Notes: generated by a model not told the origin, from the sequence alone. Counted from the first letter of the stretch, positions 469 through 32,325 are shown. The stretch is DNA of 64,000 bases from an uncultured virus (IMG/VR IMGVR_UViG_3300029922_000018) (IMGVR_UViG_3300029922_000018), one strand, 5' to 3'. Numbers and translations are program-made.

Positions 469-1383
469 ATGAATAATACAACAATCAATAAAAAATTATG
501 GGAAGAAAAAAGCTTAATCGAAGTAAATCCGAACTTGTCGAGCAAAAACGTATCCGAGATGCCCGATACTATACCAAGCATGGAGAACAAATTAAAAAAG
601 AACGAATGCGAAAATACTGGGAAAAGGTGGATAAGAAGTTGTCCAAATTGTAAATCTACTATAACATACAAATCAAAAGAAATTCTTAATAAAGCAATAA
701 AAAACAATTCCCACCACTGTAAAAAATGCAGTAATATTGGCCGCACATCTCCATTTAAAGGAATTAGGAAAACATATATAGGAACTTGTTTAGACTGTGG
801 ATATATAAGAGAACTTCTACACGCATCAAATTATTCTACATCCAAAAAGAAAGGGTTTCGGTGTGAGAAATGTGCGAATAAAAAGAAACAAATAACAATA
901 AATTCACCCACATATATTAAACCAACCATAAAGCATGAAGAATATAATAGATTATGTCCAGACTGCCACGAAGTTGTATATTATACATCAAAAAGAATCC
1001 TAGATAATGCTAAATATAAAAACAGTAAATGTAGAAAATGTGCCGACAAAGAACATCGGTTAAGATGTATAGAAAAAAGACAAAATATATATCCAATATA
1101 TAATAAAATGGCGTGTTGTATATTCGAAGATATAAACAAATCACTAGGTTGGAACTTACAACATGCTACAAACGGAAAAGAATATAAAATAATCGGGTAT
1201 TTTTTAGATGCATATGATAAGGATAGAAATATAGTAGTTGAATACGACGAACCACATCATTATTATAAAGATGGGACTATGCGTAAAAAGGACATTCGAA
1301 GACAGGAAGAAATAACAAAACATTTAAATTGTAAATTTTACAGAATAAAACACAATCAAGACTGGAAAGATGTAATACTATGA
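469..1383 (+). CDS. Zn-ribbon-repeat PD-(D/E)XK (Vsr-like) homing endonuclease; start 469 or 580
   Basis: Multiple CPxC/CxxC repeats; C-terminal YFLDAYD..NIVVEYDEPHH; paralog of 21530..22834. Confidence 0.75.
   Translation: MNNTTINKKLWEEKSLIEVNPNLSSKNVSEMPDTIPSMENKLKKNECENTGKRWIRSCPNCKSTITYKSKEILNKAIKNNSHHCKKCSNIGRTSPFKGIRKTYIGTCLDCGYIRELLHASNYSTSKKKGFRCEKCANKKKQITINSPTYIKPTIKHEEYNRLCPDCHEVVYYTSKRILDNAKYKNSKCRKCADKEHRLRCIEKRQNIYPIYNKMACCIFEDINKSLGWNLQHATNGKEYKIIGYFLDAYDKDRNIVVEYDEPHHYYKDGTMRKKDIRRQEEITKHLNCKFYRIKHNQDWKDVIL
498..653 (+). CDS. MGRKK micro-ORF (51 aa) overlapping the endonuclease in another frame
   Basis: Hand translation MGRKKLNRSKSELVEQKRIRDARYYTKHGEQIKKERMRKYWEKVDKKLSKL*; four similar copies in the window. 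Confidence 0.7.
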   Translation: MGRKKLNRSKSELVEQKRIRDARYYTKHGEQIKKERMRKYWEKVDKKLSKL

Positions 1384-2153
1384 ATTATCCAATTAGCATA
1401 TGCATTCCAACGTTCAAAGAACCGGAATATCTTGACCTTACGATTCAATCTGCAATAGATGGACAGGTAAATAATAACGAATATGTAATTACTATAGATG
1501 GAACATATACCGAAAATAAATGGGTATTAGATAAGTGGAAAAATAAAATAAAACCGGTTATATTCGAACAAATCATGGGGCAATCAGTGGCTACCAACTA
1601 TTCGGTATATAACGCATCAAATGATAATGTATTTATATGCAATGATGACCAAGTTTTTCCAAAGGATTGGGATATTAATCTATTAGATGGATATAATCCG
1701 GCAGTAGATGTAATGACTGCTAATCAAATAGAACCTTATGATTCGATGTTTAACCAATTCATAAAACATGATTTTGGACGAACGGCTGCTACGTTTGATA
1801 TGGAAATGTTTTATAAATTTGAGCCTACATTCAGAAAAAATAAAATTGATGATAGTGGGTCTACATTACCATATTTAATATCTAAAATCAACTACTTGAA
1901 AACCGGTGGATGGTCAGACTTCCCCAGTGGGCATGTGGTTGACTGGGAATGTATGTTAAAATATCAATTATGTGGTTTAAAAATGAAAAGAAACTATATG
2001 TGTAATTTATATCATTTTGTATCTATTGGAACTTCATTGCCCGAAAAAATTAACGAAAAAAAACTAAAAGAACAACAAGGGTTTGAGCATTTTAGGATGA
2101 AATGGGGTAGTTATCCTAAACATGACCCCATCACCAATCTAAAATCATTATAA
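1380..2153 (+). CDS. GT2 family glycosyltransferase
   Basis: ISICIPTF, ITIDG and FICNDD (DxD-type) motifs. Confidence 0.85.
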   Translation: MNYPISICIPTFKEPEYLDLTIQSAIDGQVNNNEYVITIDGTYTENKWVLDKWKNKIKPVIFEQIMGQSVATNYSVYNASNDNVFICNDDQVFPKDWDINLLDGYNPAVDVMTANQIEPYDSMFNQFIKHDFGRTAATFDMEMFYKFEPTFRKNKIDDSGSTLPYLISKINYLKTGGWSDFPSGHVVDWECMLKYQLCGLKMKRNYMCNLYHFVSIGTSLPEKINEKKLKEQQGFEHFRMKWGSYPKHDPITNLKSL

Positions 2154-2241
2154 TCAATCAGTCGACCATAATTTCTATTATTCTAACATAGAAATCATTA
2201 TAATTCTATTCTTCCACTAAAAATCCATTATATTTATAGTT

Positions 2242-2577
2242 ATTAATATCTTAAATATCATACTAGTAATAACTATAATATTACTGATAATATTCAAAAC
2301 TGAAGCGTGGGTTGAGTATTGTAAATTACTTAAACTTGATTTTATATCTAAGTATATCGACTATGAATTGAAAAAGTCAAATGATGTATCTCTCGACTAT
2401 ATACAATACCTCAGACAATATCATAATTGCTTCTTAATACGTCTTATTACTTGCCCCATATGCTTATCAATGTGGCTCGGTATAATTTCAGGAGTAATAC
2501 TGTTATCCCCCTATTCTATCCCCTTGTATATTGTGGGTGGCCTCGTAATATTTCTGGTAATAAATAAACTATTATGA
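2242..2577 (+). CDS. Small membrane protein with CPxCxSxW motif (DUF1360-like); start uncertain
   Basis: LITCPICLSMWLG plus hydrophobic helices; frame is open upstream of the track's TTG start back to 2221. Confidence 0.55.
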   Translation: MNILNIILVITIILLIIFKTEAWVEYCKLLKLDFISKYIDYELKKSNDVSLDYIQYLRQYHNCFLIRLITCPICLSMWLGIISGVILLSPYSIPLYIVGGLVIFLVINKLL

Positions 2578-2864
2578 GAATTAACAATGTAACTGAGTTT
2601 GTGAATTTTTCAAATTCTAATGGACTTGCAGCATTGGATGCTTCATTTGCTCAAATAATTCAATGTATTGAAAAATATAAATATAAATGTAGCTGTTACA
2701 ATAACCAAGATAAGATTAATCAATATAACGAATGTAATAGATTATATTCCAATATAGTATTATCAATACTACCTAGATTTAAATCTCAAATATTTTCAAA
2801 AGTAGGAGACATGCAAATATATTTTCACGATGGAAGTCTCCTAATTGGAATTTTATCTAGATGA
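2574..2864 (+). CDS. Hypothetical protein
   Basis: ORF coupled to the upstream gene by a 4-nt overlap. Confidence 0.6.
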   Translation: MRINNVTEFVNFSNSNGLAALDASFAQIIQCIEKYKYKCSCYNNQDKINQYNECNRLYSNIVLSILPRFKSQIFSKVGDMQIYFHDGSLLIGILSR

Positions 2865-3236
2865 TTTAAATTTTAATTTTTTAATGGTATTCAATTCTTT
2901 TGGAAGTTCTCCATTATCAATCATATGTTCAGTTTCAATTAAACATAGTATATTCCATGCCGCTGCAATCGCATGGTCTTCATCCCTATGACCAGCCATA
3001 AATTTATATAAATGCCGGAAAGCAGAATCTAAATATCGATTCAATGGAATCCCCTTGGTCCAATTAGAATCGCCATATTTTACCGCACCATTTTCAAAAT
3101 GTTTTGCAAGGCGTGACATAGCTTCACATGGAATCAAGTCATATCGTCCCTTTCCTATCTGAATATCTCGCTGTGCGCCCGTTTTAAATTTTTGCCGCTT
3201 ACCTGAATCTTTAACAACAAATTTATTTTTACTCAT
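2853..3236 (-). CDS. dATP/dGTP diphosphohydrolase domain protein (DUF5664-like)
   Basis: TGAQRD..GKGRYDLIP, GAVKYGDSNWTKG, DSAFRHL, EDHAIAAAWN. Confidence 0.8.
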   Translation of the reverse strand: MSKNKFVVKDSGKRQKFKTGAQRDIQIGKGRYDLIPCEAMSRLAKHFENGAVKYGDSNWTKGIPLNRYLDSAFRHLYKFMAGHRDEDHAIAAAWNILCLIETEHMIDNGELPKELNTIKKLKFKSSR

Positions 3237-3729
3237 CTTTTTTATCCTCAAATAATTCGTTAATTTCTTTCTCGTCCAAACCAAATGACTGTAATATCTG
3301 TTCTAATTCCTGCTCTCCTCGCTTTGACTTTAATAGAATATTTATATATTCATTTGATTGGTAGTTTGGTATTTTAAATCGTTTTCCAATATACTCAACC
3401 AACTCTTTCCTAAATTTTATTTTTTTTGACTTTACCCATGGATAAAACCTAGTTGATTTTGGAACTATAGCAATCAATAACTGATAAAATTGCGGAGACG
3501 GTATTTTATCATGTATCTGATACAGTTGAGCCATATCTTCAACGATGGACGCATCCATTGATAATGCTCTAAGTATCATGAAATGATTAAAGGTCTTCTT
3601 ATCAAAATCCGACAATGATTTATAATAATCAACGTCTTGATTTTGCCGGATTTCCTTGACATGGTCAAAGACCGACTTCCGCTTAATCTTCGGAATTGTT
3701 TCTTGACCGAGTTTTTGATTTATAGACAT
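3229..3729 (-). CDS. T4 gp62-like clamp loader small subunit
   Basis: VFDHVKEI, FNHFMILRALSM, IVPKSTRFYPWVKSKK pattern. Confidence 0.65.
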   Translation of the reverse strand: MSINQKLGQETIPKIKRKSVFDHVKEIRQNQDVDYYKSLSDFDKKTFNHFMILRALSMDASIVEDMAQLYQIHDKIPSPQFYQLLIAIVPKSTRFYPWVKSKKIKFRKELVEYIGKRFKIPNYQSNEYINILLKSKRGEQELEQILQSFGLDEKEINELFEDKKDE

Positions 3730-3982
3730 TCGCTTCTTTTTCTATTTTAATTATTCGCTTCGCAATTATCTCAATATTTTTAGCTAGGGAGTCGTCGTTA
3801 TCTCTGGCGGTTTCGGCACACTTTGCCAGAAATGGAACTTCGACTTCGGCGGATTTTATCAGAGGAGGTAAATCTACACGTATCAACTTCAATATTTTCT
3901 TATTTGAAAAATACCAAAGTGTAAATAGTATTATATTAAACAATACTAATACCGATGTAACTATTACCAGTGCTATAATCAT
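3683..3982 (-). CDS. Hypothetical membrane-anchored protein
   Basis: N-terminal hydrophobic helix followed by coiled coil. Confidence 0.6.
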   Translation of the reverse strand: MIIALVIVTSVLVLFNIILFTLWYFSNKKILKLIRVDLPPLIKSAEVEVPFLAKCAETARDNDDSLAKNIEIIAKRIIKIEKEANVYKSKTRSRNNSED

Positions 3983-4128
3983 AATATCTCATTATCATTA
4001 AAAATATCCCATTTCTTTTTGCTAGTTGGAAACGGCTCCTTTTGATGATGTTTATTGGGCTTCTTTTTCTTATTATAAGAGTCGTTAGTCTTATACTTGT
4101 CTCGGTTTTCTTTGTATGATTTCCCCAT
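3979..4128 (-). CDS. Small basic protein (49 aa) missing from ORF track
   Basis: MGKSYKENRDKYK...WDIFNDNEIL*; TGA overlaps the next ATG (ATGA). Confidence 0.55.
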   Translation of the reverse strand: MGKSYKENRDKYKTNDSYNKKKKPNKHHQKEPFPTSKKKWDIFNDNEIL

Positions 4129-4170
4129 ATTATTAATAGTTGATTGTTCTATAATACATACTACAATTTA

Positions 4171-4473
4171 TCAATATCGCCGTATATATTTTCCAATAGT
4201 TTCGATTTGACCTTTGTAAAGGTCAATTTTTTTATATCCATCAGAAGTTAAAATATAACTAATAACAATTACCTGAGAACTAATAGGGACATTCATTATT
4301 TTGTATATATTCTTGAGATTTGTCAACACAATTGCTTTGCTCCCATATATAATTGGGTTTACCATGTCCACATCATAGAGAACCGCCTCTGACATTGAAT
4401 AGTAATAAAGATGAAAGACGTTCCCGTGGATGGAGTCTTTCTTCTCGTGGTTTATTACATTCTTAGCAATCAT
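4171..4473 (-). CDS. Hypothetical protein
   Basis: ORF in co-directional operon. Confidence 0.6.
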   Translation of the reverse strand: MIAKNVINHEKKDSIHGNVFHLYYYSMSEAVLYDVDMVNPIIYGSKAIVLTNLKNIYKIMNVPISSQVIVISYILTSDGYKKIDLYKGQIETIGKYIRRY

Positions 4474-4474
4474 A

Positions 4475-4750
4475 TTAACCGAGAATAGCCTTCTTCAATC
4501 CATCGACTATATTAACCCGATTAGCTTCTGCTTTGGCAATTGTAATTGGCGTAATGGGTGTAAACGCATACAGTTTGGTTGGTCTGCCCATATTTCCGGT
4601 GATAGCCCCTAGCTCGGCAATCTTGCCCGCCTCTTTTTCCTTGGTTATTCTTACCCGCATAGTAATTTCTTTTTCGGTTGGATTTAACGTAAATACTTCT
4701 TTAAGAGTGAAGGTTTGTGTGGATGGCCAGTTTATTTTTTTATTTTTCAT
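4475..4750 (-). CDS. Small winged-helix-like DNA-binding protein
   Basis: FTLKEV...GRPTKLY wing-like motif; consensus promoter upstream. Confidence 0.5.
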   Translation of the reverse strand: MKNKKINWPSTQTFTLKEVFTLNPTEKEITMRVRITKEKEAGKIAELGAITGNMGRPTKLYAFTPITPITIAKAEANRVNIVDGLKKAILG

Positions 4751-4776
4751 AATTATTTTTTGTTTAAGACGAGGCT

Positions 4777-4805
4777 ATTATATCAGAGTTTGTAATAATT
4801 GTCAA
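4777..4805 (-). promoter_or_regulatory. Perfect sigma70 promoter
   Basis: TTGACA-17 nt-TATAAT on the minus strand. Confidence 0.85.
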
Positions 4806-4808
4806 CTG

Positions 4809-5192
4809 TTATTTTAATAAGTCGGAATTTTCTAAAATATTTCCCACTACTTCTGGATTAGTGGCATATACACTTCTCTCTTCATCTGGAATTAGATAAA
4901 ACGGATAAAATCCCCCAACATTTGCATCATAGAAGACTTCTGCCGGTTTAAAAACTCCACATCGAATGATATCACCCTCATAAATCTCTTTTCCATTTAT
5001 ATCCTTAATTCCAATATATTGTTGGATAATTGGGTCAAATCCTTCTAAAGTAAATATTTTATGTATTACAGATTGGTTATCATCTATCTCGACATAGTGA
5101 ATTAACGGAACTCCAGTATCTGCTCCAAATATAATTGAATTTAACCAAGATTTTTTAAGATTACTCCAAACTCTAAATTTTAATTTACGCAT
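4809..5192 (-). CDS. YopX family protein
   Basis: MRKLKFRVW, QYIGIKDINGKEIYEGDII, EVVGNILEN. Confidence 0.9.
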   Translation of the reverse strand: MRKLKFRVWSNLKKSWLNSIIFGADTGVPLIHYVEIDDNQSVIHKIFTLEGFDPIIQQYIGIKDINGKEIYEGDIIRCGVFKPAEVFYDANVGGFYPFYLIPDEERSVYATNPEVVGNILENSDLLK

Positions 5193-5231
5193 GTTAATAT
5201 AATATCATAGTTATTAAAAATGTCAAGGAAA

Positions 5232-5255
5232 TAAAAAATCCCTCCGAAGAGGGAT
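5232..5255 (-). terminator. Rho-independent terminator with UUCG tetraloop
   Basis: ATCCCTC-TTCG-GAGGGAT followed by a T run on the minus strand. Confidence 0.85.
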
Positions 5256-5274
5256 GAGTTATATAAAGATTAGA

Positions 5275-5979
5275 TTATTTTTGTTTGATTGTCAATTTTG
5301 TATCTTTTTGTTTTGGATATTTATAAGTAGGTTTTGTTCCTTTAATGGAATGTTCGTCTTGTTTTTTTGTTTTACCAACTTCTTCCATTGGTTTATTTTG
5401 TGGAGTTGATTTTTCTCCATCTTCATTAAAGTCTTTATTTTTATTTGATGCATCTCCGACTTTTTTATGTTCGGGCTTATCTTTTTGTGGAAGCCCCTTA
5501 TCAGGTGCTTCAATAGATTTTTCTTTTTCATTATCTACCGATTTCTTATATGCCTTTTCGGTGTTGGTCTCATTATTTTTTAGATTTTCTTTAATGAAAG
5601 ATAAAACTTGTTCCAGCGTTTGCCCTACCACTACTATACGGTCTTCATTTTTTGTATATGCTTCAATATTATATGAATTGCTCCATCTAGGAGTTATACG
5701 AATAGAATTTAAATCCCTGACATTTATCATAATGTCATCATGGTCGTCCCATATGACAGTTGAAGATTTATCGGCTTCGGACGCTGCTTTAGTAATAGTA
5801 TCTAAAATTTCTTCTTTGGACTTGGAATCTACCTTGTGGGGAGTAATATCTTTCAGGTCGGCTCCTTTATTGACTTCGGGCAGTCGTTTAAATATTTTCT
5901 TATCAGTTGAAGATTTTTCTATTTCTTCTTTGAGAATGCGTCTAACGACAGATTTAAATTCAGATGGTAAATTACTCAT
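5275..5979 (-). CDS. Hypothetical charged late protein, possibly virion-internal
   Basis: TATTTATA 4 nt upstream of ATG; N-terminal RRILKEE. Confidence 0.6.
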   Translation of the reverse strand: MSNLPSEFKSVVRRILKEEIEKSSTDKKIFKRLPEVNKGADLKDITPHKVDSKSKEEILDTITKAASEADKSSTVIWDDHDDIMINVRDLNSIRITPRWSNSYNIEAYTKNEDRIVVVGQTLEQVLSFIKENLKNNETNTEKAYKKSVDNEKEKSIEAPDKGLPQKDKPEHKKVGDASNKNKDFNEDGEKSTPQNKPMEEVGKTKKQDEHSIKGTKPTYKYPKQKDTKLTIKQK

Positions 5980-5983
5980 ATGA

Positions 5984-5991: not shown

Positions 5992-6015
5992 TAAAGATAA
6001 ATTGTTAAAAATTGT

Positions 6016-17546: not shown

Positions 17547-17592
17547 ATATTATATAAATATATGAAAAAAATGCCAAACCAAGCAATATAAC

Positions 17593-18981: not shown

Positions 18982-21540
18982 TTATTTTATTCCGAGCTTT
19001 AGTTTTATTTGATTTCTGAGCGGTATAACGCCAGCCGTAATTTGAGTCGCCCATTTTCCGGCTTCTATAGTTTCCGTCACATCCGTTATTCTAAATACAA
19101 TATTCGTTGACGAGTATGGTTCGGGAAGTCCATCAACTAAAAACATCATAAATGTCCGGAGACCACCAATTCCCTGTAAAGTAAACGATGCTTGAATTCC
19201 TGGCATTATACCAGTATAATTTGTATTGTTATCGTAATCTCCATCATCCAACAACATATTCAATATCTCCACATTGGGGAGAACGAGCCGACGGACTATA
19301 ATATTTCCGGAAGATGTGGTGTAATTTCCTCGCATTCTCCCCGTGGTTATTAGGGTCTTATAGTTATTGGTAGTGGATGTCATCTGGAACATTTCCTTAG
19401 ATGGCTTAACAACTTGCAAATCTTTTAATATCGACAATATATCCAAAGATGTTTTTTGATTTTGAGACGTGTCCGATTCTTTTATTATTTCGCTTAGAAA
19501 TAATCGGTCACGAAATTTATAGTCTAATAATTCACTATTTCCATTGTTTAATTTTCGGTTTGAATTTTTATTGAGAGAGGTTGGGGAATAAATCGCCCGT
19601 ATAGCTTGGGCATTACTTAGGGTTGGTTTAAAATCGATTCCGGTAAGTATGCTCTCATTACTCATATATTTAAACGTATATGGGGCTGTGCTGGTGGGAG
19701 AAATATATTTAAAATCAACTATTTTCATACATGATTGTGATGTTAAATCCGGATTTCCTGCTCCAGCCACCAATCTTAAATCCCAGAAATTTCCACATGC
19801 CGCACTTATACCAGATAATAATTTTTCAATTACATCAGTATAAGTCTTTACGTCTGTGTCGAGCATTATTTTTTCCAAAAATGAAGTGTTAATATATAAA
19901 TTTTTCAAATACCCAGATTGAAGTTTATCAGACACCGATGGAAATTCAAAATTCCCAACAACATTATTTTGTTTTCGATTTGCATTTATTAACTCATCTA
20001 AATCATCCCTATAAATTGAATTTTTAGGCTGTAAACATATTCGATGAAGTCTAGCATCTGCCGGAGAACTATTGGTTGTGAAAGATGATATTATCGGAGT
20101 ATATTCCATTATATCTACGTCGACATTTGATATTCCAGTGGAATTTACCAATCCAAGTCCAACAAAATATTTTGGAGCTTGTTTGTTTGGTATTAACAAC
20201 ACACTCCCATCCGATGATATCATGTTTGCGTGACCCGTTATTTTCACATCATCAATGTCTATCTTGAATATCTCGCCGGTTTGTTTATTGCTAAGTTTTG
20301 ATGTGTGATAGTTTAATATATCGATTACCAGCCCCATGTTTAGCCAGAGATTATCAGTTTCTCCATTCCCATCAAAATCATCATTTACATTCCGGTGTTG
20401 ATATGAATTGATATTGACATCCAATACATCACGACCATGGAATATTCCATATATATATTCTTTCCAATTTTTTCTAGTTCTTTTCAGATATAGTATAAAA
20501 TTAAATATTTTATTTTCTTCATCTGATAATTGGGGGTAATTTGCCGATGAAACTCCCGATGGAGTGTCTAGCAATGATATCACGGTCAATAGATTACTGG
20601 ACTTGGAGGTGGTTGATTTTAATAGGTTTACACTCTTTAAAATAAACTCCGACAAATTTCCAAATGGCAATTTTGGAGGAGATTTTGAGGACTCATCTCC
20701 ACCATCAGATGATATAGAAATTTCCTCGACTGTAGCATCAACTGATAATCCAGCATAAATTCTATCCTTTGATAATATTTCGGTCTGGCATTTAAATTTA
20801 TTACCTTCAACCGACCATGTAAAATTTGTTATTATACCCATCATAACATCATAATTTCCATTTGATTTTAATATGTGATTGGTATATAATGGATATGGGT
20901 TATTCATTAATTTCTTCAAATATGCTTCGTCCGATACATCCAATAAACAGTCGGGATTATAATGGTTCCAGCCCCATTCTAATACACATGAAATGCCGGG
21001 AACCATGAAATATGGAGTCATATATTCCAATTGTTTTTTGGAAAAGCAGACCCAATCAATTATCGCTTTTCGATATAGTTCTTTTTGAATTGTCACCGTT
21101 ATTTTTTCTATTTCCGGCGCCGGGACGTGAATTGGATAATTATCATTTATATCGTTTTCTATAATATGCGGAGTCATTATTCCGTCTGGTTGATATCCGA
21201 TAACTCCACTTGCTTTTTCAGTTGAGGTTTTATCAAACCCATAAGTCTGATAAAAGTCCTTGCCACCGACCAATATAAACCCCGGAGCGAATTGTGGAGG
21301 CATTAGAAAATTCCCCTTGGCATCAATTTCCTGTCCATTTCCATTTGATGTAAATCGCAGCCACGGAGACATCGGTCCTTTATATTGAGTCCATTCGCCC
21401 GTAGAGTCATTCCAAGTTCCTTTAGTATCTACTATATAATTAAATCCCCGATTATTTTCACGTCGAAGTAGCTCGCTTTTTATTTGTGATGGAAAATTAT
21501 TCGGCGTCCAAAATTGTATCGGTGGTATATCAAAAATCAT
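18982..21540 (-). CDS. Putative baseplate hub / tail structural protein
   Basis: Tail module context; YFMVPGISCVLEWGW, GNYDVMMGIITNFTW, FRITDVTETIEAGKW. Confidence 0.6.
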   Translation of the reverse strand: MIFDIPPIQFWTPNNFPSQIKSELLRRENNRGFNYIVDTKGTWNDSTGEWTQYKGPMSPWLRFTSNGNGQEIDAKGNFLMPPQFAPGFILVGGKDFYQTYGFDKTSTEKASGVIGYQPDGIMTPHIIENDINDNYPIHVPAPEIEKITVTIQKELYRKAIIDWVCFSKKQLEYMTPYFMVPGISCVLEWGWNHYNPDCLLDVSDEAYLKKLMNNPYPLYTNHILKSNGNYDVMMGIITNFTWSVEGNKFKCQTEILSKDRIYAGLSVDATVEEISISSDGGDESSKSPPKLPFGNLSEFILKSVNLLKSTTSKSSNLLTVISLLDTPSGVSSANYPQLSDEENKIFNFILYLKRTRKNWKEYIYGIFHGRDVLDVNINSYQHRNVNDDFDGNGETDNLWLNMGLVIDILNYHTSKLSNKQTGEIFKIDIDDVKITGHANMISSDGSVLLIPNKQAPKYFVGLGLVNSTGISNVDVDIMEYTPIISSFTTNSSPADARLHRICLQPKNSIYRDDLDELINANRKQNNVVGNFEFPSVSDKLQSGYLKNLYINTSFLEKIMLDTDVKTYTDVIEKLLSGISAACGNFWDLRLVAGAGNPDLTSQSCMKIVDFKYISPTSTAPYTFKYMSNESILTGIDFKPTLSNAQAIRAIYSPTSLNKNSNRKLNNGNSELLDYKFRDRLFLSEIIKESDTSQNQKTSLDILSILKDLQVVKPSKEMFQMTSTTNNYKTLITTGRMRGNYTTSSGNIIVRRLVLPNVEILNMLLDDGDYDNNTNYTGIMPGIQASFTLQGIGGLRTFMMFLVDGLPEPYSSTNIVFRITDVTETIEAGKWATQITAGVIPLRNQIKLKLGIK

Positions 21541-22834
21541 ATATCAGTTCTTTCTTATTAATTACGTCTGATAAGATACCAGTTCGTTCGTTATATCTCC
21601 AAAATTCAATTGGAGATATTTCTTGTATTATATTATCTTGACGTTTTCTGTCTTTTTCTTTTAGATTATTGGATGTATCATAATGATATTTCTCATCATA
21701 TTCAAATACTATATTTTTCTCTCTATCATATCCATCTAAAAAGTATCCACTTACATTATATTCTCCCCCGTTTGTTGCGTGTTGAAATTTTAAGTTGAAC
21801 TTTTTATTTATATAATCAATAAACTCACATGCTCTTTTATTATATGATATTAGTCCGGATTTCCCATAGTTTTGTTTTAAAAATTGTTGAGTTATGAGTC
21901 TTCTTTTTTTCCTGTATTCATCCGATTCATGAATAAGTTTCATATGGGTAATATGTGATGGGTCTTTCCACATATTACTTGAATTTATTTTATGTTTTTC
22001 CCTGTATTCCGGTGATTTCATTATATCTAACATTTTATTACGAACATGTGGAGTATTCCATTGTTCCTTTGTCTTTTTGCTTGTTTTATTACGATATTCT
22101 TCGGTTTTAAAATACATACGATTTGGTGAATTTTTTAAAGATTTACTCATTTTTTCTCGATATTCATCGGTTATCCAGTGATAATCTTTTTTAGTCGCTG
22201 CCAATTTTGTGCCACAACTTCCACAATCAGAATTTAATTTTATACCCAACAAATATCCTTTCCTAGATTTATATGTAATATCGTTATTACATGTTGGACA
22301 TATTCGTTCCCAATATTTTTCATTGGGGGGTATGATTTTTTTAGTTTTACATTTCGAGCACTTTTTATTGGTTTTTAATGCAGTATTTAACGCACTTTTA
22401 CATGAATATTTTTGTTCAGTCCCACATTCCGGACAGTATTTTACCCACCCAATATCTGGAATTTTTATTTTTCTCACCGATTGACTACATTTATTACACT
22501 TAGCATCCTCTAGAATAGCAGTTATCAATGATTTTTTACACGTATATCGCTGTTCACATCTACATTCAGGACATAATTTTATCCATCCGTTTTCTGGTCT
22601 GGGAACTCTAAGCGAGTTTGCATAGCATTTTTTACATTTATTATTTTCTTTAATAGACCGAGTTAAATTTCCTTCGCTGCTATAATTCATTTCTTCCCCA
22701 CAATTAGGACAGTTTTTAATCCATTGATTTCCAATATCGTTGCATTCGTTTTTGCAAGACTTCTTTTCGATGTCGTTCATAATAGAGTTGGTCGTCTTTT
22801 CGTTTGGCCTCTGTTCGTTGTTTGTCGGTGACAT
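21530..22834 (-). CDS. Zn-ribbon-repeat PD-(D/E)XK homing endonuclease (start may be 22780)
   Basis: Four WxxxCPxC..CxxC repeats; YFLDGYD..NIVFEYDEKYH. Confidence 0.78.
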   Translation of the reverse strand: MSPTNNEQRPNEKTTNSIMNDIEKKSCKNECNDIGNQWIKNCPNCGEEMNYSSEGNLTRSIKENNKCKKCYANSLRVPRPENGWIKLCPECRCEQRYTCKKSLITAILEDAKCNKCSQSVRKIKIPDIGWVKYCPECGTEQKYSCKSALNTALKTNKKCSKCKTKKIIPPNEKYWERICPTCNNDITYKSRKGYLLGIKLNSDCGSCGTKLAATKKDYHWITDEYREKMSKSLKNSPNRMYFKTEEYRNKTSKKTKEQWNTPHVRNKMLDIMKSPEYREKHKINSSNMWKDPSHITHMKLIHESDEYRKKRRLITQQFLKQNYGKSGLISYNKRACEFIDYINKKFNLKFQHATNGGEYNVSGYFLDGYDREKNIVFEYDEKYHYDTSNNLKEKDRKRQDNIIQEISPIEFWRYNERTGILSDVINKKELIYDF

Positions 22835-22853
22835 ATTTTTTCTTTCTTCCCAT
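22716..22853 (-). CDS. MGRKK micro-ORF (45 aa)
   Basis: MGRKKKYVTDKQRTEAKRKDDQLYYERHRKEVLQKRMQRYWKSMD*. Confidence 0.7.
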   Translation of the reverse strand: MGRKKKYVTDKQRTEAKRKDDQLYYERHRKEVLQKRMQRYWKSMD

Positions 22854-22914
22854 AATAGTTGTATAACCTTTCATATTATAACTATATCTCACGGAACAAA
22901 AACACGGAATATTT

Positions 22915-25535: not shown

Positions 25536-25581
25536 ATAGTATATAAATATAGAGAACTATCAGTTAGTTGGACATTATAAA

Positions 25582-27912
25582 TTAACTATTAGTCCCAAAG
25601 GCTCCACGGAAGTTCAATGTTCTGGCCAGTTGGGTGGACACTAATGAACCATCTAGATTTATCGCAATCTTCCCTTCTTGTAAATTCTTATTTAAATTAT
25701 TAATAGCATCTAATACACCTTGCAATAATTTATTACCTTCGTCATTCTGATTAATTTGTTCTTTAACATTAGTAGTTTGTTCCTTAACATTAGAAGTCAC
25801 ATCGGATGACGTTGCGGTTTTATCTGATGGTTTAATTTCATTGTTTCCGTGTAACAATGGAGAAACTCCATGAGATACAGTTAATAGTCCAGCCGATACT
25901 TTACTCATGCCCGGCACATGACTTAATAATTTGGCAATTACTCCAAGTCCTTTTCTAAATGGCCAAGTTAATGCATCAAATATCATTGCTCCAACTGATA
26001 CTATACCTTTGACTATTGATAATCCTAACTTTGATGGTGAGTGTCCTGCAATTGGACTCTTGGTAAACCAATGCCACAAATCTACAAATGGCTGAATTAG
26101 TACTCTATACGCTACTATTGGAACGAAGAATATACCTTTCAATATTCCTTTTCCAATTCTGCTCCAATCACCACTGGCTATATCAGCTATAATTTCTTTT
26201 ATTAATTTAAACCCTTCCCACACACCCTGCACTGCCATTATTATTTCTCCTAGACCAGGAATTGCCTTTCCAAACATTCCAAATATTTCCACGAATTCCC
26301 CAAGCCCTTCGAAAATAGACGTGACTGGACTTAGCCATTCCCCCAATTTTGCAAATATCTTAAATCCCTCAAGAAACTTGGTAAACCTACTAAACGGAGT
26401 AATTATTTCTTCTAATACGGTTAACCCATCTTCACTATATGCCACTATTTTTTCAACTGATGTTAACCATTTTAATAGAAATCCGGCTCCGACTGATAAC
26501 ACTGGAATAAGAGATATAAAGGGAGGAACAATCGATAATGCAGCATCTGTTAATTTCAATATTGGTGGTAATATTTGAGCGATTAATTGGTTCCATTTCT
26601 GTTGAATTGCAACTATTCTTTCTTGATTAGATTTTTGTTGCATGGATAACAACATAGTAGCACCAGCATCTTTTGCTGCTGCTTGATTTAGATTTCTCAA
26701 TCGTTCATATTCAGTTGCTGCTGCTCTAATTTCAACATTCGTGCTAGATTTAGCATCCCTAAGTTCTTTCTCGGCTTGACACATGGCGGTTAAATCAGAA
26801 ACGGATTTTCCAGTCATCGCCGCAAATGCTTGCTGTTGAAAATAATCCATCTTATCTAGAAAATGGTTTTGCTGTGCCATGTTTAAGATTTCTTTGTTAT
26901 AACCTACAAGGTCTCTTCGATATGATAACTCTCTTGCTTTTTGCATATTGAGTGAATGTCCTAAGAGAACAGAAGCTTCCATTTCCTCGTTTATGCTCTG
27001 TGTGAAATTTAATATATGAGCCGCACCATCAGAAACAGCATCCAGCGATGTTCCTAATTTTCTAAACTCGACGGCTGATTTAATAGAAATAGATGGAATA
27101 CGGCTCATTAACATCAGCGTATTAGCCGATTTACTTGCCAAATCTGCCATCACCTTCCCTAAATTAGTTCCAGCCGCATTTGAAAGAGCAGCCGCATATC
27201 CTGCCATATTTTGCTGACTCTCCATCGAAGTTCCCGAAATCGCTGCCATATTTCGGAAGAACTCGGCAGATGTCTCCTGACTAATTCCAAGTTGGGAGTT
27301 CAATATAGAAATTGTTTTTACTAATTCTTGAGATATATTGTGAATTCCACCGGAAACTTCTCCTAATGCTTCTACCGATTTTAATACAATTCCTATATTA
27401 ACTCCAACATTCATATAATCTATTGCCATTTGACGAGCATATGTTTGTATGTTTTTAGTTGAACTTCGCATCATTCCTAGGGTCATATTAAATTCAACCG
27501 CAGCTTTATCCATAGCCTTGAATAATATCCAAGTCTCCCGCAGTATTAAGAATATAGGAGTAAATCCGGACATGTTTAATACACGCAACATGTTTAATTC
27601 TTTTTGTAGTTCCACTTTACGTTGAGCGATAGACGCCAAAACATTCTTGGCATCTTTTTGTTCTTGTCCAGTGGTTGATTGAACTTTTATTTGAGCCATT
27701 AACAACTCAGACTCCGTCTTTGCGAGTTGTTTAGAGATTTCGCCGTGAACTTGATATGTCTTTTTCCATCCTAAATTTATTTTTTCAGTATAGCTCAATA
27801 TATCAGCCAATGGGTCGGCCTGTTCTTTCAATAACCGATTGGCATCGGCAATTGCCTCCTTTGAATGTTCGAGTTTATCGGATATAAACCCCTGTGCTAT
27901 TTCATTTACCAT
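25582..27912 (-). CDS. Tail tape measure protein
   Basis: Long Ala-rich helical protein with hydrophobic segments, KAIPGLG motif, tail context. Confidence 0.8.
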   Translation of the reverse strand: MVNEIAQGFISDKLEHSKEAIADANRLLKEQADPLADILSYTEKINLGWKKTYQVHGEISKQLAKTESELLMAQIKVQSTTGQEQKDAKNVLASIAQRKVELQKELNMLRVLNMSGFTPIFLILRETWILFKAMDKAAVEFNMTLGMMRSSTKNIQTYARQMAIDYMNVGVNIGIVLKSVEALGEVSGGIHNISQELVKTISILNSQLGISQETSAEFFRNMAAISGTSMESQQNMAGYAAALSNAAGTNLGKVMADLASKSANTLMLMSRIPSISIKSAVEFRKLGTSLDAVSDGAAHILNFTQSINEEMEASVLLGHSLNMQKARELSYRRDLVGYNKEILNMAQQNHFLDKMDYFQQQAFAAMTGKSVSDLTAMCQAEKELRDAKSSTNVEIRAAATEYERLRNLNQAAAKDAGATMLLSMQQKSNQERIVAIQQKWNQLIAQILPPILKLTDAALSIVPPFISLIPVLSVGAGFLLKWLTSVEKIVAYSEDGLTVLEEIITPFSRFTKFLEGFKIFAKLGEWLSPVTSIFEGLGEFVEIFGMFGKAIPGLGEIIMAVQGVWEGFKLIKEIIADIASGDWSRIGKGILKGIFFVPIVAYRVLIQPFVDLWHWFTKSPIAGHSPSKLGLSIVKGIVSVGAMIFDALTWPFRKGLGVIAKLLSHVPGMSKVSAGLLTVSHGVSPLLHGNNEIKPSDKTATSSDVTSNVKEQTTNVKEQINQNDEGNKLLQGVLDAINNLNKNLQEGKIAINLDGSLVSTQLARTLNFRGAFGTNS

Positions 27913-27984
27913 ATACAGTATAAATATATAAAATTCTCAATTATACCACGATTTATCATGGTTCTTTTGATTTGTCGATTTCCC

Positions 27985-28012
27985 TTGACTTTTTATATTT
28001 CTTCCGTATACT
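27985..28012 (+). promoter_or_regulatory. sigma70-type promoter
   Basis: TTGACT-16 nt-TATACT just before 28022. Confidence 0.55.
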
Positions 28013-28021
28013 CGTAGTATT

Positions 28022-28327
28022 ATGAATAATAAATTAGACAATAACCAAGAAACGCTGTTTTCGGCGGTTAAGAACCTCGTGGGGGAATTGATGGGTGTTT
28101 GCTTCTTATTTGTGCTTTTTGTCCCAATTTTGGTCGCTCCGATGTTTGGATACTATGTTCGTGGAAATTTAATGGCCACATATGGTATTTACAATGAAAA
28201 CAACGACGTAATTAAGGCAAAAATGTTGCCGGTTTGGGCGTTTCTATGGGTTGTCGCCCTAATTGGTTGGTCTATTATTGGATATATCGAAATTGATATC
28301 CAATCAGTATGTAACTACACTAAATAG
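28022..28327 (+). CDS. Small two-TM membrane protein
   Basis: Two hydrophobic helices; own promoter; opposite strand to tail genes. Confidence 0.65.
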   Translation: MNNKLDNNQETLFSAVKNLVGELMGVCFLFVLFVPILVAPMFGYYVRGNLMATYGIYNENNDVIKAKMLPVWAFLWVVALIGWSIIGYIEIDIQSVCNYTK

Positions 28328-29303
28328 TAGCAATCTTGGGGAGTTTATCAATTCCTCGTTTAAATTGTTTCCAGTCATATTCCCAGATATATTTCACAGC
28401 ATATCCCATAGATTTTAGAATATTCATCTTCTTAAATGTCAATTCATTTAATTCTTGAAATGTCTTTTTTGCTATTATATTTCTATCCTCCATATTATTT
28501 GTTTTCGGATTTCCATGCCAGTAATTTCCTAAATATTCATAAATCGTATTTGTCTTGTCATCATATCCATCGGGCTTGCAATATTTTAAATCGCTACAAT
28601 CCTTAAACTTAATTAAAAATTGACGATGTTTGGCGTCATCTGGTATACTACAATATTCTAAAAATTCGCATTCACCCTTAGATATTATATTTTTACATTT
28701 TCTACATCCCTTACCGGACAAATGACAATCCGCTCCCTGTGTAAAATCCCCATGTTTTGGACATGTTATTATTATCTTATCTTTTCGAGTTTTATATATA
28801 GCGTTACAATACGTATAATAATTATTATGAATGTTGTTAGAATCAATTATAAATTTTTCCAATAGTTTTGTTCGTGATAATACCCGACGATTAATTCCAC
28901 ATTGTCGGCATCCTCTACCAGTTAAATGGCCGTTTGGTGTTTGATTGAATATTATTCCACAGAGATTGCATTTTATTTTTACGATTTTTTTACTATGAAT
29001 ATAATCTACAAAATCATAATTATATGCAGTATTACCATGTATTTTAATAGCATCTAGTATAAATTTATCTTTAGAAATTTTGTTTTTATTTGCTCTAAAT
29101 TCAATAGAACATTTTGGACAACCTGCTCCATGTAAATGATTCCACTGCAATTGTTCAAATTTAATATTATGTATGTTACAGTTAATTTTAACTTTAGATG
29201 ATTTTTTGTTACAATTTATATCATCGTAGCCATATCTACCAATACCATGAATTTGATTAGCACTTTTTATAAATTCTAATTTTTTAATATTATTTATTGA
29301 CAT
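28320..29303 (-). CDS. DUF723/CapR-like repeat PD-(D/E)XK homing endonuclease
   Basis: Three HG..Y.Y...K..I.C..H..F.Q...HL.G.GC..C repeats; PDGYD..TNTIYEYLGNYWHGNP; YIWEYDW. Confidence 0.8.
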   Translation of the reverse strand: MSINNIKKLEFIKSANQIHGIGRYGYDDINCNKKSSKVKINCNIHNIKFEQLQWNHLHGAGCPKCSIEFRANKNKISKDKFILDAIKIHGNTAYNYDFVDYIHSKKIVKIKCNLCGIIFNQTPNGHLTGRGCRQCGINRRVLSRTKLLEKFIIDSNNIHNNYYTYCNAIYKTRKDKIIITCPKHGDFTQGADCHLSGKGCRKCKNIISKGECEFLEYCSIPDDAKHRQFLIKFKDCSDLKYCKPDGYDDKTNTIYEYLGNYWHGNPKTNNMEDRNIIAKKTFQELNELTFKKMNILKSMGYAVKYIWEYDWKQFKRGIDKLPKIATI

Positions 29304-29424
29304 GGTAATATTCCAGATTTATTTTTCGAATTTTATCCGCATTACGCCAATACCAACGTCGTTTCTTAGCTTTTTCGGCTTCGTGTTTTTCTTCTTGTGT
29401 ATTATATATTTTTTTACGTCCCAT
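29290..29424 (-). CDS. MGRKK micro-ORF (44 aa)
   Basis: MGRKKIYNTQEEKHEAEKAKKRRWYWRNADKIRKINLEYYHVNK*; TATTTATA 4 nt upstream. Confidence 0.75.
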   Translation of the reverse strand: MGRKKIYNTQEEKHEAEKAKKRRWYWRNADKIRKINLEYYHVNK

Positions 29425-29471
29425 ACATTATAAATATACGTCTAAAAAAGAAAACGTCTAAAAATATTTAC

Positions 29472-29693
29472 TCATTTCCCATCTACTCTATTAGATGGTG
29501 GTTTACCGGAAGATACTCCTTGTGATTTTTCCATTTGCTTCTGTTCATCATCCTTCGTTTTTATTAACCGAGAATAATAATAATTACGGAGGGTGACTGG
29601 CATGGAATATAATTCATCATGGTCAAATTTACCAAAATGAACCATATCAAATATTAAATTGTGGACGCCTAAAACGTATTCTTTAGTTAGGAA
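29472..29693 (-). CDS. Tail/baseplate assembly chaperone C-terminal extension, probably reached by frameshift
   Basis: ELYSMPVTLRNYY motif; overlaps the end of the upstream gene in the +1 frame. Confidence 0.55.
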   Translation of the reverse strand, partial: FLTKEYVLGVHNLIFDMVHFGKFDHDELYSMPVTLRNYYYSRLIKTKDDEQKQMEKSQGVSSGKPPSNRVDGK

Positions 29694-30498
29694 AGAGAAA
29701 GGTAATTCCCATGGGGATTTGTTCCTCCTTTCGATACTCACATTCCGAACAACAAAATTCAAACGTGGAATTTAATTCGGGTGATATTTGTTTAATGTGG
29801 CGGCGGAGTTCTAAACTGTCTTTCGAGAGCAATTCGCCATCGACAAATTTTCTAATTCGGGCAGTCGTATTATCACCATCAACTGATGTAATAATATAAT
29901 TTAAACGGGTAGTCATTTCCGTCGATTGTTTGCTTATTTTCTTGAGCGACTCTATTTCTTTATCAATATTATAGATATCCTTACGAGTCAAGAATTTGAA
30001 CGTAATATTTGTCTTTGAATTTGGAAGTTGGAATGAAAAATTATTTTCTCCTTTAGGATATAATGAAAGGTCTAGGTCTTTATTTTTTAAAATAGATAAA
30101 TCTATCTCCACTTGATTTTCTTTACCACACCGCCCACAAGTAACTACGGCGTCATATGTGGTGCCGTAAGCTAATTGTCTTAACGCAAAGATTGCTGCAT
30201 CAAAATCAGTCATCAACAAATCATCAATTTTAATTGTCTTATCGACAATAACTGATTCTAATAATTTATCAAGTAAAGTGCCATTTTTAATCAACGTCTG
30301 ATTGGTCAATAAATTTTCTTCACGGGCAGTCAAATTTTTCATCTCAAGTGTTCCGACGGAAAGGGGGTTGGATGTATCGTATAGAAGTCCTTGTGATGGC
30401 AGTGATATGGTTTCTGTTGGGTATTTTGGCGTCGAATCGGTCTTGGGTTGCTGTTGCATTCCAGCAGATGGGCGAGTGATTGGTATAATATCAGACAT
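29683..30498 (-). CDS. T4 gp26-like baseplate hub / tail assembly chaperone
   Basis: ISLPSQG..Y, LTAREENLL, RQLAYG..Y..CGRCG, IITSVDG. Confidence 0.8.
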   Translation of the reverse strand: MSDIIPITRPSAGMQQQPKTDSTPKYPTETISLPSQGLLYDTSNPLSVGTLEMKNLTAREENLLTNQTLIKNGTLLDKLLESVIVDKTIKIDDLLMTDFDAAIFALRQLAYGTTYDAVVTCGRCGKENQVEIDLSILKNKDLDLSLYPKGENNFSFQLPNSKTNITFKFLTRKDIYNIDKEIESLKKISKQSTEMTTRLNYIITSVDGDNTTARIRKFVDGELLSKDSLELRRHIKQISPELNSTFEFCCSECEYRKEEQIPMGITFLFPN

Positions 30499-30630
30499 AA
30501 TTTATTGTAATCTTGTTAATGTTTCTGAATATACATATACTGAAATTTAAAAATTTATTAATTATATTTGATGTTTAGAGTTTTTTGCTAATAGTTATAT
30601 AATGAAAGGTTACAGGTAAAATACATTATT

Positions 30631-30774
30631 ATGGGAAGAGATAAGAAATATTTAACAAAAGAAGATAAATATCAGGCGGAATTAAAGTGGAAACGAGAAT
30701 GGTATGCTCGAAACAAATCGATATTAAAAGAAAAACGAATGAAGAAATATTATGGCAATAAAATTAACAGTTGA
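30631..30774 (+). CDS. MGR-K micro-ORF (47 aa)
   Basis: MGRDKKYLTKEDKYQAELKWKREWYARNKSILKEKRMKKYYGNKINS*. Confidence 0.75.
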   Translation: MGRDKKYLTKEDKYQAELKWKREWYARNKSILKEKRMKKYYGNKINS

Positions 30775-31694
30775 CGAATTTATTATTAAATCAAAAATCA
30801 TTCATAGCGAAAGATTTGATTATTCCGAATTAAAATTCAAAAACAAAAATCAAACTAAGATGTAATATCTGCGGAAATATATTTTATCAAAATCCATCAA
30901 ATCATCTAAGGGGAAGTGGATGTAAAACATGTGCGAATATAAAACTAAGAGCTGACCGAATTAAACCAGTCGAAACATTTATATCTGAAATAAGTTCTAT
31001 TTATGGTGATTTATACGAATATAAAAAATTAAAATATATTGATACAAATACTCCAGTCACAATAACATGTAAATTACATGGAGATTTCTCAACTATTCCA
31101 GATAATTTATTACATTCCCACGGATGTCCGGTGTGTGGTAGATTAAAATCAGATATAAATAGACGATTAACGGTTGACAAATTTTTGTTGAGGGCTAATA
31201 ATATGCATGGGAATAACTATGATTATTCATATATGAAATACGAGACAACCGAAATTAAAATTAAAATTAAATGTAACACATGTAATAGAATTTTCAACCA
31301 AAGACCAATAAACCATATGCGTGGAGATGGGTGTCCATATTGCTCCTATAACATATCAATCCCCGAAATAGAATTTTTAAATTATTGTAATATACCAAAT
31401 AATAAGGAGCATCGACAAAAGTATATTAAACCATATAAACCAGATGGTTATGACTCATCTACAAACACTATTTGCGAATTTCTTGGTGATTATTGGCATG
31501 GAAATCCGGATAAATTTAAATCAACGTATTTCAACCAACGATGTAAGAAAACTGCGGGAGAATTATATATCGAAACTATAAATAAATTCGATGCCTTAAA
31601 ATCCCTTGGTTACAATATAAAATATATATGGGAAAGCGACTGGAAAAAATTCAAATGTGGAAATGATAAGTTTCCAAATATTATATTATATTAA
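30752..31694 (+). pseudogene. Frameshifted DUF723-repeat homing endonuclease
   Basis: MAIKLTVDEFIIKSKIIHSERFDYS stops at ~30865; homology continues in another frame (KIKLRCNICG...) into track ORF 31131..31694. Confidence 0.75.
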
Positions 31695-32053
31695 TGCATT
31701 TTCAATTGCTGGACTGTTTTTTGCAATTGAGGTATTTGAGAAGTTTGCATCTGCCGTTCATCTTTTTTAGTAAAATCCAATTTCTTTTTAGCAGTATCCA
31801 ATTCCATCTGTTTTTGTTTAAGCTGGTCTTGTTTTTGTTTTTTTTGAATTCTATCAAGTTTCATTTTATCGGCAGTAGACATTGCCCCGACTAGTTGGTT
31901 GTTGGGGTCTGTTATTTGAGCATTGTCGGCTTGGCCACCATTTAATGAAGATGGAGGATTATCTAACACACTAAATTCTTTAATTGATAATGCCTCGTTT
32001 ACCATCTCTCGAACAATGTGCTTAACCAAAATTCTTAATTGTGTCTCATTCAT
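31691..32053 (-). CDS. Hypothetical coiled-coil late protein
   Basis: TATTTATA upstream of ATG at 32053; HIVRE/MVNE/SIKE motifs. Confidence 0.6.
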   Translation of the reverse strand: MNETQLRILVKHIVREMVNEALSIKEFSVLDNPPSSLNGGQADNAQITDPNNQLVGAMSTADKMKLDRIQKKQKQDQLKQKQMELDTAKKKLDFTKKDERQMQTSQIPQLQKTVQQLKMH

Positions 32054-32175
32054 ATCATATAAATATAATATTAATGATGTATTATGCATTTTATAAAAAT
32101 AAATCGAAATAGTTAGAGTATTTTGGCTAGAGTCATATATTTATATAGTGAAAGGTTACAATAAAATAAAGTATT

Positions 32176-32325
32176 ATGGGAAGAAAAAAAGCATATAAAA
32201 CCGAAGAAGAACGAAGAAATGCCGAACTAAAATGGAAGCGAGAATGGTATCATAGAAATGCCGAAAAAACAAATAAATTAAAGATGGAAAAGTATTATGC
32301 CAAGAAAAACTCCAGAAGAACTTAA
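32176..32325 (+). CDS. MGRKK micro-ORF (49 aa)
   Basis: MGRKKAYKTEEERRNAELKWKREWYHRNAEKTNKLKMEKYYAKKNSRRT*. Confidence 0.75.
   Translation: MGRKKAYKTEEERRNAELKWKREWYHRNAEKTNKLKMEKYYAKKNSRRT

Follow-up and report, generated by a model that had tools for sequence, protein, structure and literature searches.

The window analysed here, a stretch of 64,000 nucleotides (nt) from an uncultured peat phage (IMGVR_UViG_3300029922_000018), carries five nuclease cassettes, each of which pairs a nuclease gene with an overlapping small open reading frame (micro-ORF) encoding a basic peptide of the MGRKK type. Our analysis indicates that these micro-ORFs are very likely real genes and that the nuclease cistrons overlapping them are separately initiated. 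The first cistron probably encodes a new small basic protein that acts as a DNA-binding controller. Homing endonucleases shape phage genomes, and the self-limitation of their toxicity is understood for few T4 cases; the presence, in hundreds of uncultured phages, of a small conserved gene without annotation that accompanies nucleases from at least five catalytic families points to a shared and portable control module. DNA sequencing runs labelled peat metagenome contain the window stretch.

A reading of the window from sequence alone had drawn attention to the five micro-ORFs, and ORF listing together with the sequence confirms all five as ATG-started frames at the coordinates it had given (Table 1). 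That reading had placed the nuclease in the +1 frame relative to the micro-ORF, which is true for all five cassettes, and the nuclease ATG 121 nt past the micro-ORF ATG in three, which is exact for cassettes 3, 4 and 5 (ATGs at 29303, 30752 and 32297). The two nuclease subfamilies that it recognized are also distinct: nuclease 1 is a homologue of nuclease 2 (BLASTP E 4e-22), both having Zn-ribbon repeats followed by a ...GYFLDxYD...NIVxEYDE..H... carboxy terminus, and nucleases 3-5 consist of DUF4379 treble-clef repeats and a ...EFLGDYWHGNP... carboxy terminus and match phrog_559/681. The similarity in both frames that had been noticed between cassettes 1 and 2 (RMxxYW versus KNEC..G..WI..CPNC) is genuine, and reflects one DNA segment read in two frames. 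The KNEC..G..W shadow of RMxxYW recurs before GIY-YIG domains at other loci, which shows that in cassettes 1 and 2 the constraint acts on the frame of the micro-ORF.

The products of the five window micro-ORFs align without internal gaps, share the invariant residues M1, G2, R3, K5, Y25 and Y40, and are 23-38% identical in pairwise comparisons. The start pattern ATGGGNMGNRAYAAR (one mismatch allowed) occurs seven times in the window versus 1.57 expected, and five of the seven are the micro-ORFs. A profile built from the five peptides retrieved 13 stand-alone proteins of 44-57 amino acids (aa), and a wider profile retrieved 355 cluster representatives at E<=1e-3, of which 23 were at E<=1e-10; among the 150 representatives listed, nearly all are 44-64 aa in length. 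In addition, a profile search of the frames of 161 loci, sampled from three scans of viral contigs and the related record G001, gave 126 non-redundant matches; six of these lack an ATG close to the start of the model, and most of the six are truncated at the locus end. The other 120 copies were used for the analyses described here; 116 are 44-64 aa long, one is truncated by the locus end and three are longer. M1, G2, R3, Y25 and Y40 are invariant or near-invariant across the family.

The micro-ORFs are under purifying selection, whose absence the sequence-only reading had named among the grounds for rejecting its proposal. Entropy by codon position in the micro-ORF frame is highest at the third position and lowest at the second in every class of loci, and the median ratio of nonsynonymous to synonymous substitution rates (dN/dS) over codons 2-32 is 0.23 at loci where the +1 frame is closed (182/182 pairs below 1) and 0.24 where it is open (942/946 pairs below 1), these ratios being only rough because dS is near saturation (~1.4). 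An AlphaFold2 model of peptide 5 based on 127 sequences predicts, at a mean predicted local distance difference test score (pLDDT) of 94.2, an extended basic segment (residues 1-9) followed by two helices (10-27 and 29-48).

Searches of family and structure libraries returned little for these peptides. Pfam at E<=1 gave no family for four of the five window peptides and a chance-level match to DUF4638 (E 0.17) for the fifth, and PHROGs and NCBIfam gave nothing significant. A family profile (A5) had no match at E<=1 among PDB sequences, tblastn with peptide 5 had none in GenBank phages, Foldseek found nothing in the PDB for the peptide model, and a VIA-align fold search gave generic helical matches alone (Z<5). 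Matches in the ESM Atlas were unnamed viral clusters only, and a scan of 185,579 bacterial and archaeal species (one genome each) yielded only two small contigs of metagenome-assembled genomes; the family looks essentially viral. A literature search at the level of titles and abstract openings returned no description of such a micro-ORF. Five longer proteins of 100-270 aa (P0026, P0111, P0136, P0159 and P0162) have the motif twice in tandem at the amino terminus; they have no Pfam family and their composition does not look viral.

The pairing of a small protein with a nuclease, which had been proposed from the window as a two-component unit, extends well beyond it. The peptide profile, used on phage contigs as the sequence-only reading had suggested, recovers both the co-occurrence and the offset: an ORF of at least 80 aa lies downstream in the +1 frame in 101 of the 120 copies, in the +2 frame in three and in frame 0 after the stop in three, and is absent from 13. 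Most of these 13 turn out to be +1 nucleases that are broken or truncated, as does one of the three +2 cases, and the few genuine exceptions to the rule are L083, the second copy in L107 and the L098/L100/L111 group. Of the 86 eligible downstream ORFs, 81 were searched with Pfam after removal of five near-duplicates; GIY-YIG-type domains were found in 31/81 and NUMOD3 in many, and the others include Vsr/DUF559, DUF4379/DUF723, HNH and TnsA-like domains. The partners are homing-endonuclease families with modular DNA-binding repeats, as is typical of free-standing homing endonucleases.

The 101 +1 loci can be divided into 38 in which stops interrupt the +1 frame up to a point just ahead of the nuclease ATG and 63 in which it is open across the micro-ORF. 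At the closed-frame loci the nuclease ATG stands at +121 in 27/38. This ATG is formed from a conserved Tyr or His codon and the next G, and is used by Zn-ribbon, GIY-YIG, HNH and DUF4379-type nucleases alike; the cistrons at closed-frame loci overlap by 8-71 nt (median 26). The open-frame loci have an ATG in the +1 frame in 63/63 cases (a raw count, made without a control for chance ATGs), and in 38/63 there is one 5' of the micro-ORF ATG, often at -17, -20, -23 or -8, which leaves the small gene embedded. Three layouts are thus seen: the small gene comes first and the nuclease starts at +121, with an overlap of 8-71 nt; the small gene comes first and the nuclease starts at about +31, +40 or +73; or the nuclease ATG lies a few to tens of nt upstream and the small gene is fully embedded.

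Synonymous resampling with the amino acids held fixed, which used nuclease-body codon usage and counted related loci as independent, leaves the +1 frame open over codons 1-40 in 9.0 of the 101 loci on expectation versus 53 observed, which indicates that openness of this frame is selected. Openness is achieved through rare codons. Leu6, for instance, is CTT or CTC in 34/42 Leu codons of the embedded class (i-a), and TTA in 11/14 at loci whose +1 frame is already interrupted there. None of the 101 loci has an open +2 frame, which contains 4.3 stops on average. The constancy of the +1 offset can thus largely be attributed to the A-rich Lys, Arg, Glu and Tyr codons, which block +2, and to NAT codons followed by G, which create a +1 ATG; the nuclease would overlap in the sole frame that the A-rich peptide codons leave free of stops, and Tyr-Gly, Tyr-Ala and Tyr-Glu pairs would readily form its start codon.

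The regions upstream of the cassettes share a box and contain direct repeats. The box, TATATTTATA (one mismatch allowed), occurs 89 times in the window versus 43.5 expected, and precedes many of the large window genes, with the ATG 1-13 nt beyond; from this position we infer that it is the promoter box of this phage. In each of the five window cassettes a box of this kind ends 0-8 nt ahead of the first ATG. In 98 non-redundant cassette upstream regions, a TATATTTATA-like box (at most two mismatches) is found within 70 nt upstream in 81, of which 71 have their first ATG at -1 to 8 nt from the box end. The first ATG past the box is that of the micro-ORF in 41, an upstream ATG in the +1 frame in 28 and another in 12. 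Direct repeats of at least 6 nt with a spacing of 10-17 (mode 15; mostly 15, 14 and 11) are present in 60/98 upstream regions versus 42/405 control windows. They sit upstream of the box, and few of the box-preceded window genes outside the cassettes have one. The repeated word is specific to the cassette even within one genome (ATGTTTCG in cassette 1, TTCCGTG in 2, TTTTTAGACGT in 3 and TAGAGT in 5), and one word can accompany several nuclease families: TTCAC occurs with GIY-YIG, Zn-ribbon and DUF4379 nucleases, and CTAATG with Zn-ribbon and GIY-YIG nucleases.

We favour a reading in which the cassette consists of separate cistrons, the first encoding a sequence-specific DNA-binding controller and the overlap limiting translation of the nuclease; taken whole, we give it an even chance of being correct. 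The controller function, judged by itself, falls somewhat short of that. The small protein (~45-60 residues), with an extended Arg/Lys amino-terminal arm followed by two helices, would recognize the cassette-specific direct repeats near its own promoter box and would autoregulate the cassette, as C proteins do for restriction endonuclease operons, and the overlap, together with competition between start codons, would hold nuclease translation low. The ideas of a repressor and of translational coupling, both raised in the sequence-only reading, fit the anatomy of a promoter-proximal cistron, 8-71 nt overlaps and cassette-specific repeats at the promoter.

Similarity among repeat words best tracks peptide residues 17-24 (r 0.32; the regression coefficient was reached by 0/500 label permutations), an association that is suggestive only, since physical linkage and shared descent remain and the permutations keep the phylogeny; segments closer to the repeats in the DNA track word similarity less than residues 17-24 do. 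We put forward only tentatively the stronger proposal that proteins of the MGRKK type represent a novel group of tiny (~45-residue) sequence-specific DNA readers that would bind paired 5-11-bp direct repeats at their own promoters, with a specificity set by helix-1 residues ~17-24 that co-evolve with the word. Such proteins would be portable controllers that, by making expression self-limiting, allow homing endonucleases of whatever catalytic family to establish themselves in a new phage genome, and could be fused to a nuclease as a DNA-binding arm.

Several points weigh against a DNA-binding controller of this kind, beginning with the limits just given for the word-peptide association and the simplifications of the resampling. 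DNA binding by the small protein is a prediction, and no helix-turn-helix (HTH) or other DNA-binding family was found in Pfam, PHROGs, NCBIfam or PDB sequence searches. A repeat of at least 6 nt is missing from 38 of the 98 upstream regions and the box from 17, and the leaderless or very short-leader mRNAs that placement of TATATTTATA suggests are read from position only. A subfamily of 59-60 aa that ends in ...LYGE/LYGDQ directly precedes DnaB-like helicase genes (L098, L106, L110, L132, L143 and L144) or N6/N4 DNA methylase genes (L136 and L146); it mostly keeps the +1 relation, but has neither box nor direct repeats upstream, and it indicates that the role of the family extends beyond the control of nucleases. 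Finally, direct tests on pvuIIC and pvuIIR are reported to have given no translational coupling despite the overlap (PMC2997769), so that an overlap by itself is no proof of coupling.

Among other explanations, the peptide may bind the nuclease protein itself, either to inhibit it or confer immunity in the manner of an antitoxin, or to aid target recognition as a DNA-binding subunit acting in trans. In favour of this, every nuclease gene has its own diverged copy of the micro-ORF (23-38% identity among the five in one genome), and the rare in-frame fusions suggest that both products act together. Closely similar peptides, however, precede different nuclease families, and a single peptide family accompanies five or more unrelated catalytic folds as well as helicase and methylase genes, which speaks against a specific interface between two proteins, for example that of an active-site inhibitor. 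We consider nuclease binding unlikely.

The micro-ORF could also be a translational device only, a leader cistron that sets the nuclease level through coupling, re-initiation or start competition while the peptide itself is functionless. Its promoter-proximal position, the overlaps of 8-71 nt, and box-to-ATG distances that suggest very short leaders are what such a device would show, and comparable overlaps of T4 endonuclease genes have been read as nuclease-limiting coupling (PMC2988022). A functionless peptide, however, is difficult to reconcile with amino-acid conservation over deep divergence (the dN/dS of 0.23, with M1, G2, R3, Y25 and Y40 kept), with the confidently predicted fold, with the finding of family members repeated in tandem, or fused as modules, within longer proteins, or with the intact state of micro-ORF 4 beside a broken nuclease 4. 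This explanation is improbable.

Programmed +1 ribosomal frameshifting, or an equivalent recoding, would instead add the peptide to the nuclease as a DNA-binding arm and leave the free peptide as the non-shifted product. The +1 offset, which holds in 101 of the 107 loci that have a downstream ORF, is what this would require, and in-frame fusions occur at exactly the expected joint (marked here by a slash): ...RMERYWEK/WERICPTC... in P0014 (237 aa) and the matching ...YWKK/WTKKCPDC... in L021 (114 aa, a decayed nuclease), and a one-base skip after AAG in cassette 1 would give ...YWEK/WIRSCPNC.... Further fusions, of family B, join the peptide to DUF4379-type nucleases (L066 and L069, 351 aa, and P0084), and an AlphaFold2 model of fused L069 (mean pLDDT 92.4) preserves the predicted fold, with helices 10-27 and 29-46 and a lower-confidence linker to the repeat modules. 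These rare fusions show that the peptide module tolerates the position of an amino-terminal arm. Against frameshifting, the nucleases have starts of their own, the +121 ATG being preceded by +1 stops in 27/38 closed loci, whereas the downstream frame of a frameshift gene lacks one. In addition, the +1 frame is kept open well 5' of where a shift could plausibly occur, although shifting close to the YW codons would call for no such openness; the micro-ORF stop lies at a variable distance past the YW or YY codons; and fusions make up 3/120 viral-contig copies, representing two genes, one of them the decayed nuclease. Inspection of the joints by eye only, with no systematic scan, brought to notice no common slippery motif or shift-prone stop. 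The idea that +1 frameshifting joins peptide to nuclease, also raised in the sequence-only reading, is thus unsupported and, given the nucleases' own ATGs and the +1 frame open across the micro-ORF in 63 loci, unnecessary; we regard it as highly improbable, and low-level +1 shifting is possible but required by nothing seen. Transcriptional slippage at the A-run of MGRKK was dropped as a candidate, cassette 4 being without the run and the conserved peptide lying downstream of it.

Table 1. Features of the five cassettes, and related features, in the window
Feature	Position	Strand	Details and basis
Cassette 1 direct repeat ATGTTTCG	424-431, 439-446	+	spacing 15; sequence and repeat-finding script
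Cassette 1 promoter-like box TATACTTATA	451-460	+	first ATG beyond is 469, in the nuclease frame
Micro-ORF 1, 51 aa	498-653	+	entirely inside nuclease 1 ORF; ORF listing, alignment, profile match
Nuclease 1	469..1383	+	Zn-ribbon repeats and PD-(D/E)xK-like carboxy terminus; actual start inferred
Cassette 2 direct repeat TTCCGTG	22909-22903, 22896-22890	-	spacing 13
Cassette 2 box TATAGTTATA	22886-22877	-	sequence
Micro-ORF 2, 45 aa	22853-22716	-	ORF listing, alignment
Nuclease 2	21530..22834	-	homologue of nuclease 1; ATGs 22834 (+19) and 22780 (+73) relative to micro-ORF ATG
Cassette 3 direct repeat TTTTTAGACGT	29464-29454, 29448-29438	-	spacing 16
Cassette 3 box TATATTTATA	29438-29429	-	box end 4 nt ahead of micro-ORF ATG
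Micro-ORF 3, 44 aa	29424-29290	-	ORF listing, alignment
Nuclease 3	28320..29303	-	DUF4379-type repeats and WHGNP carboxy terminus; ATG +121; micro-ORF overlap 14 nt
Cassette 4 imperfect repeat TTTAGAG / CTAATAG	30574-30580, 30588-30594	+	read from sequence; weaker than in other cassettes
Cassette 4 box-like TTATATAAT	30595-30603	+	read from sequence; weaker than in other cassettes
Micro-ORF 4, 47 aa	30631-30774	+	intact beside broken nuclease; ORF listing, alignment
Nuclease 4, broken	30752-30865, carboxy-terminal part 31131-31694	+	ATG +121; frame interrupted near 30850-30865
Cassette 5 direct repeat TAGAGT	32114-32119, 32128-32133	+	spacing 14
Cassette 5 box TATATTTATA	32136-32145	+	sequence
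Micro-ORF 5, 49 aa	32176-32325	+	ORF listing, alignment, AlphaFold2
Nuclease 5	32297..33430	+	four DUF4379 modules and WHGNP carboxy terminus; ATG +121; micro-ORF overlap 29 nt
TATATTTATA before large genes (examples)	25542-25551, 27919-27928, 34920-34929, 49233-49242, 17553-17562	-	sequence match
222-aa putative nuclease	46721..47389	-	four in-frame (Y/W)YxxNKxxI motifs at amino terminus; nuclease call from reading of carboxy terminus

The window cassettes differ in several details. The nuclease 1 ORF is open from 424 and has ATGs at 469 (the first past the box), 559 and 580. Micro-ORF 2 has an upstream in-frame ATG at 22874, which would add seven residues if used. The product of micro-ORF 3 is identical to a protein in the public protein set (P0001), and micro-ORF 4 is identical in the related record G001 (L001), which also has the frame break of nuclease 4. 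The repeats of cassette 5 lie between divergent boxes, one at 32101-32092 (-) for a 132-aa gene and the other that of the cassette (+), and a factor bound between them could act on both genes. A further element, (A/G)TGAAAGGTTA(C/T)A, is common to cassettes 2, 4 and 5, where it stands between the box and the micro-ORF ATG (22861-22876, 30603-30616 and 32147-32160); the ATG of the cassette 2 copy is in the micro-ORF frame and would extend the product by the same seven residues.

Contigs from four peat runs diverge from the window at 32096, 22839, 22886, 21543, 28774 and 30850. The divergence at 32096 is just 5' of the first repeat of cassette 5. At 22839, a contig in other peat runs matches the promoter and the opening 15 nt (MGRKK) of micro-ORF 2 and then encodes a different peptide. 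At 30850, in contigs of three other runs, the sequence reads as an intact DUF4379-type module where nuclease 4 breaks. Divergence at the edges and in the interiors of cassettes fits cassette turnover; no empty-site joint was found in the contigs of the four runs. A one-T insertion polymorphism is also seen behind 22861, between the box and the ATG of cassette 2.

The sequence-only reading had also linked the micro-ORF peptides to YYxxNK helices in the 222-aa putative nuclease. The in-frame motifs are present, but a relation to the micro-ORF family is weak and at the level of motifs: hhalign gives a probability of 6.9% (E 0.005), and the protein matches the A5 profile in four partial stretches at 13.9 bits with high compositional bias (43.7). 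Its G001 orthologue scores E 0.009, and the family libraries hold no match to it. Upstream of the gene, at 47390-47480 (-), CTGTCAAGTT occurs twice, 45 nt apart, with one ATGTCAAAT between, which makes this a repeat-bearing promoter region without a separate micro-ORF.

If the favoured reading of a self-limiting controller cassette is correct, it offers a set of tiny proteins whose matching to short DNA words can be tested and possibly a minimal scaffold for DNA recognition. The cassettes would also be a clear natural case of dual coding, in which a gene of ~50 codons is embedded in or overlaps a larger gene and avoidance of stop codons can be measured. For annotation, genes of 44-64 codons and the true starts of the nucleases are easily missed or miscalled.

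The closest parallel is with the C proteins of restriction-modification (R-M) systems (C.PvuII, C.AhdI and C.Esp1396I). In both cases a small gene lies upstream of, and overlaps, an endonuclease gene in one operon (5/5 cassettes in the window and 101/120 copies elsewhere). In R-M systems the C gene precedes the R gene and overlaps it in part; its promoter has two binding sites, and its transcripts frequently lack a leader, with a spacer of 17-18 nt (PMC2632904; PMC2997769). Repeated sites at the gene's own promoter, a short distance from site to ATG, and the limiting or delaying of a toxic nuclease in a mobile unit would be common to both if the micro-ORF protein binds DNA as predicted; two direct-repeat copies, as putative sites, stand beside the box in the 60 repeat-bearing regions. 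There are also differences. C proteins have an Xre-type HTH, bind palindromic C-boxes and belong to R-M systems with a methyltransferase, whereas the micro-ORF proteins, of 44-64 residues, have no detected HTH (no family match, and a model that predicts an arm and two helices only), are accompanied by direct, cassette-specific repeats, and have phage homing endonucleases as partners. No methylase was found among the Pfam matches of the downstream ORFs (neighbouring genes were not scanned), and at two loci a methylase is the small gene's only partner. With no HTH detected, direct repeats and no R-M context, the micro-ORF proteins fall outside the C-protein family.

Free-standing homing endonuclease genes of the T4 type (seg and mob) are likewise nuclease cassettes with middle or late promoters and with ORF overlaps that keep the nuclease low. 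Of the free-standing endonuclease genes of T4, 5/12 overlap the upstream ORF by 1-24 nt, which has been read as nuclease-limiting coupling or scanning, and I-TevI is an autorepressor at its own late promoter, which its operator overlaps (PMC2988022). In T4, however, the overlapped ORF belongs to the host phage and the nuclease acts as its own repressor, whereas the micro-ORF cassette supplies a dedicated upstream cistron that is conserved across nuclease families.

A small basic amino-terminal ORF followed by an out-of-frame catalytic ORF is also the arrangement of OrfA-OrfAB in IS3 and IS1-type elements, which use programmed frameshifting, as prfB does in the +1 direction, and in-frame fused variants occur in both settings. 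In the micro-ORF cassettes, however, the offset is +1 and not -1, the downstream ORFs have ATGs of their own, and no conserved slippery site was noticed by eye. Finally, Rz1 is embedded inside Rz in the +1 frame, and the 38/63 long-overlap loci resemble this pair in having a small gene fully inside a larger one with both frames kept; the micro-ORF family belongs to another functional class, and the same small gene also occurs in the merely overlapping layout.

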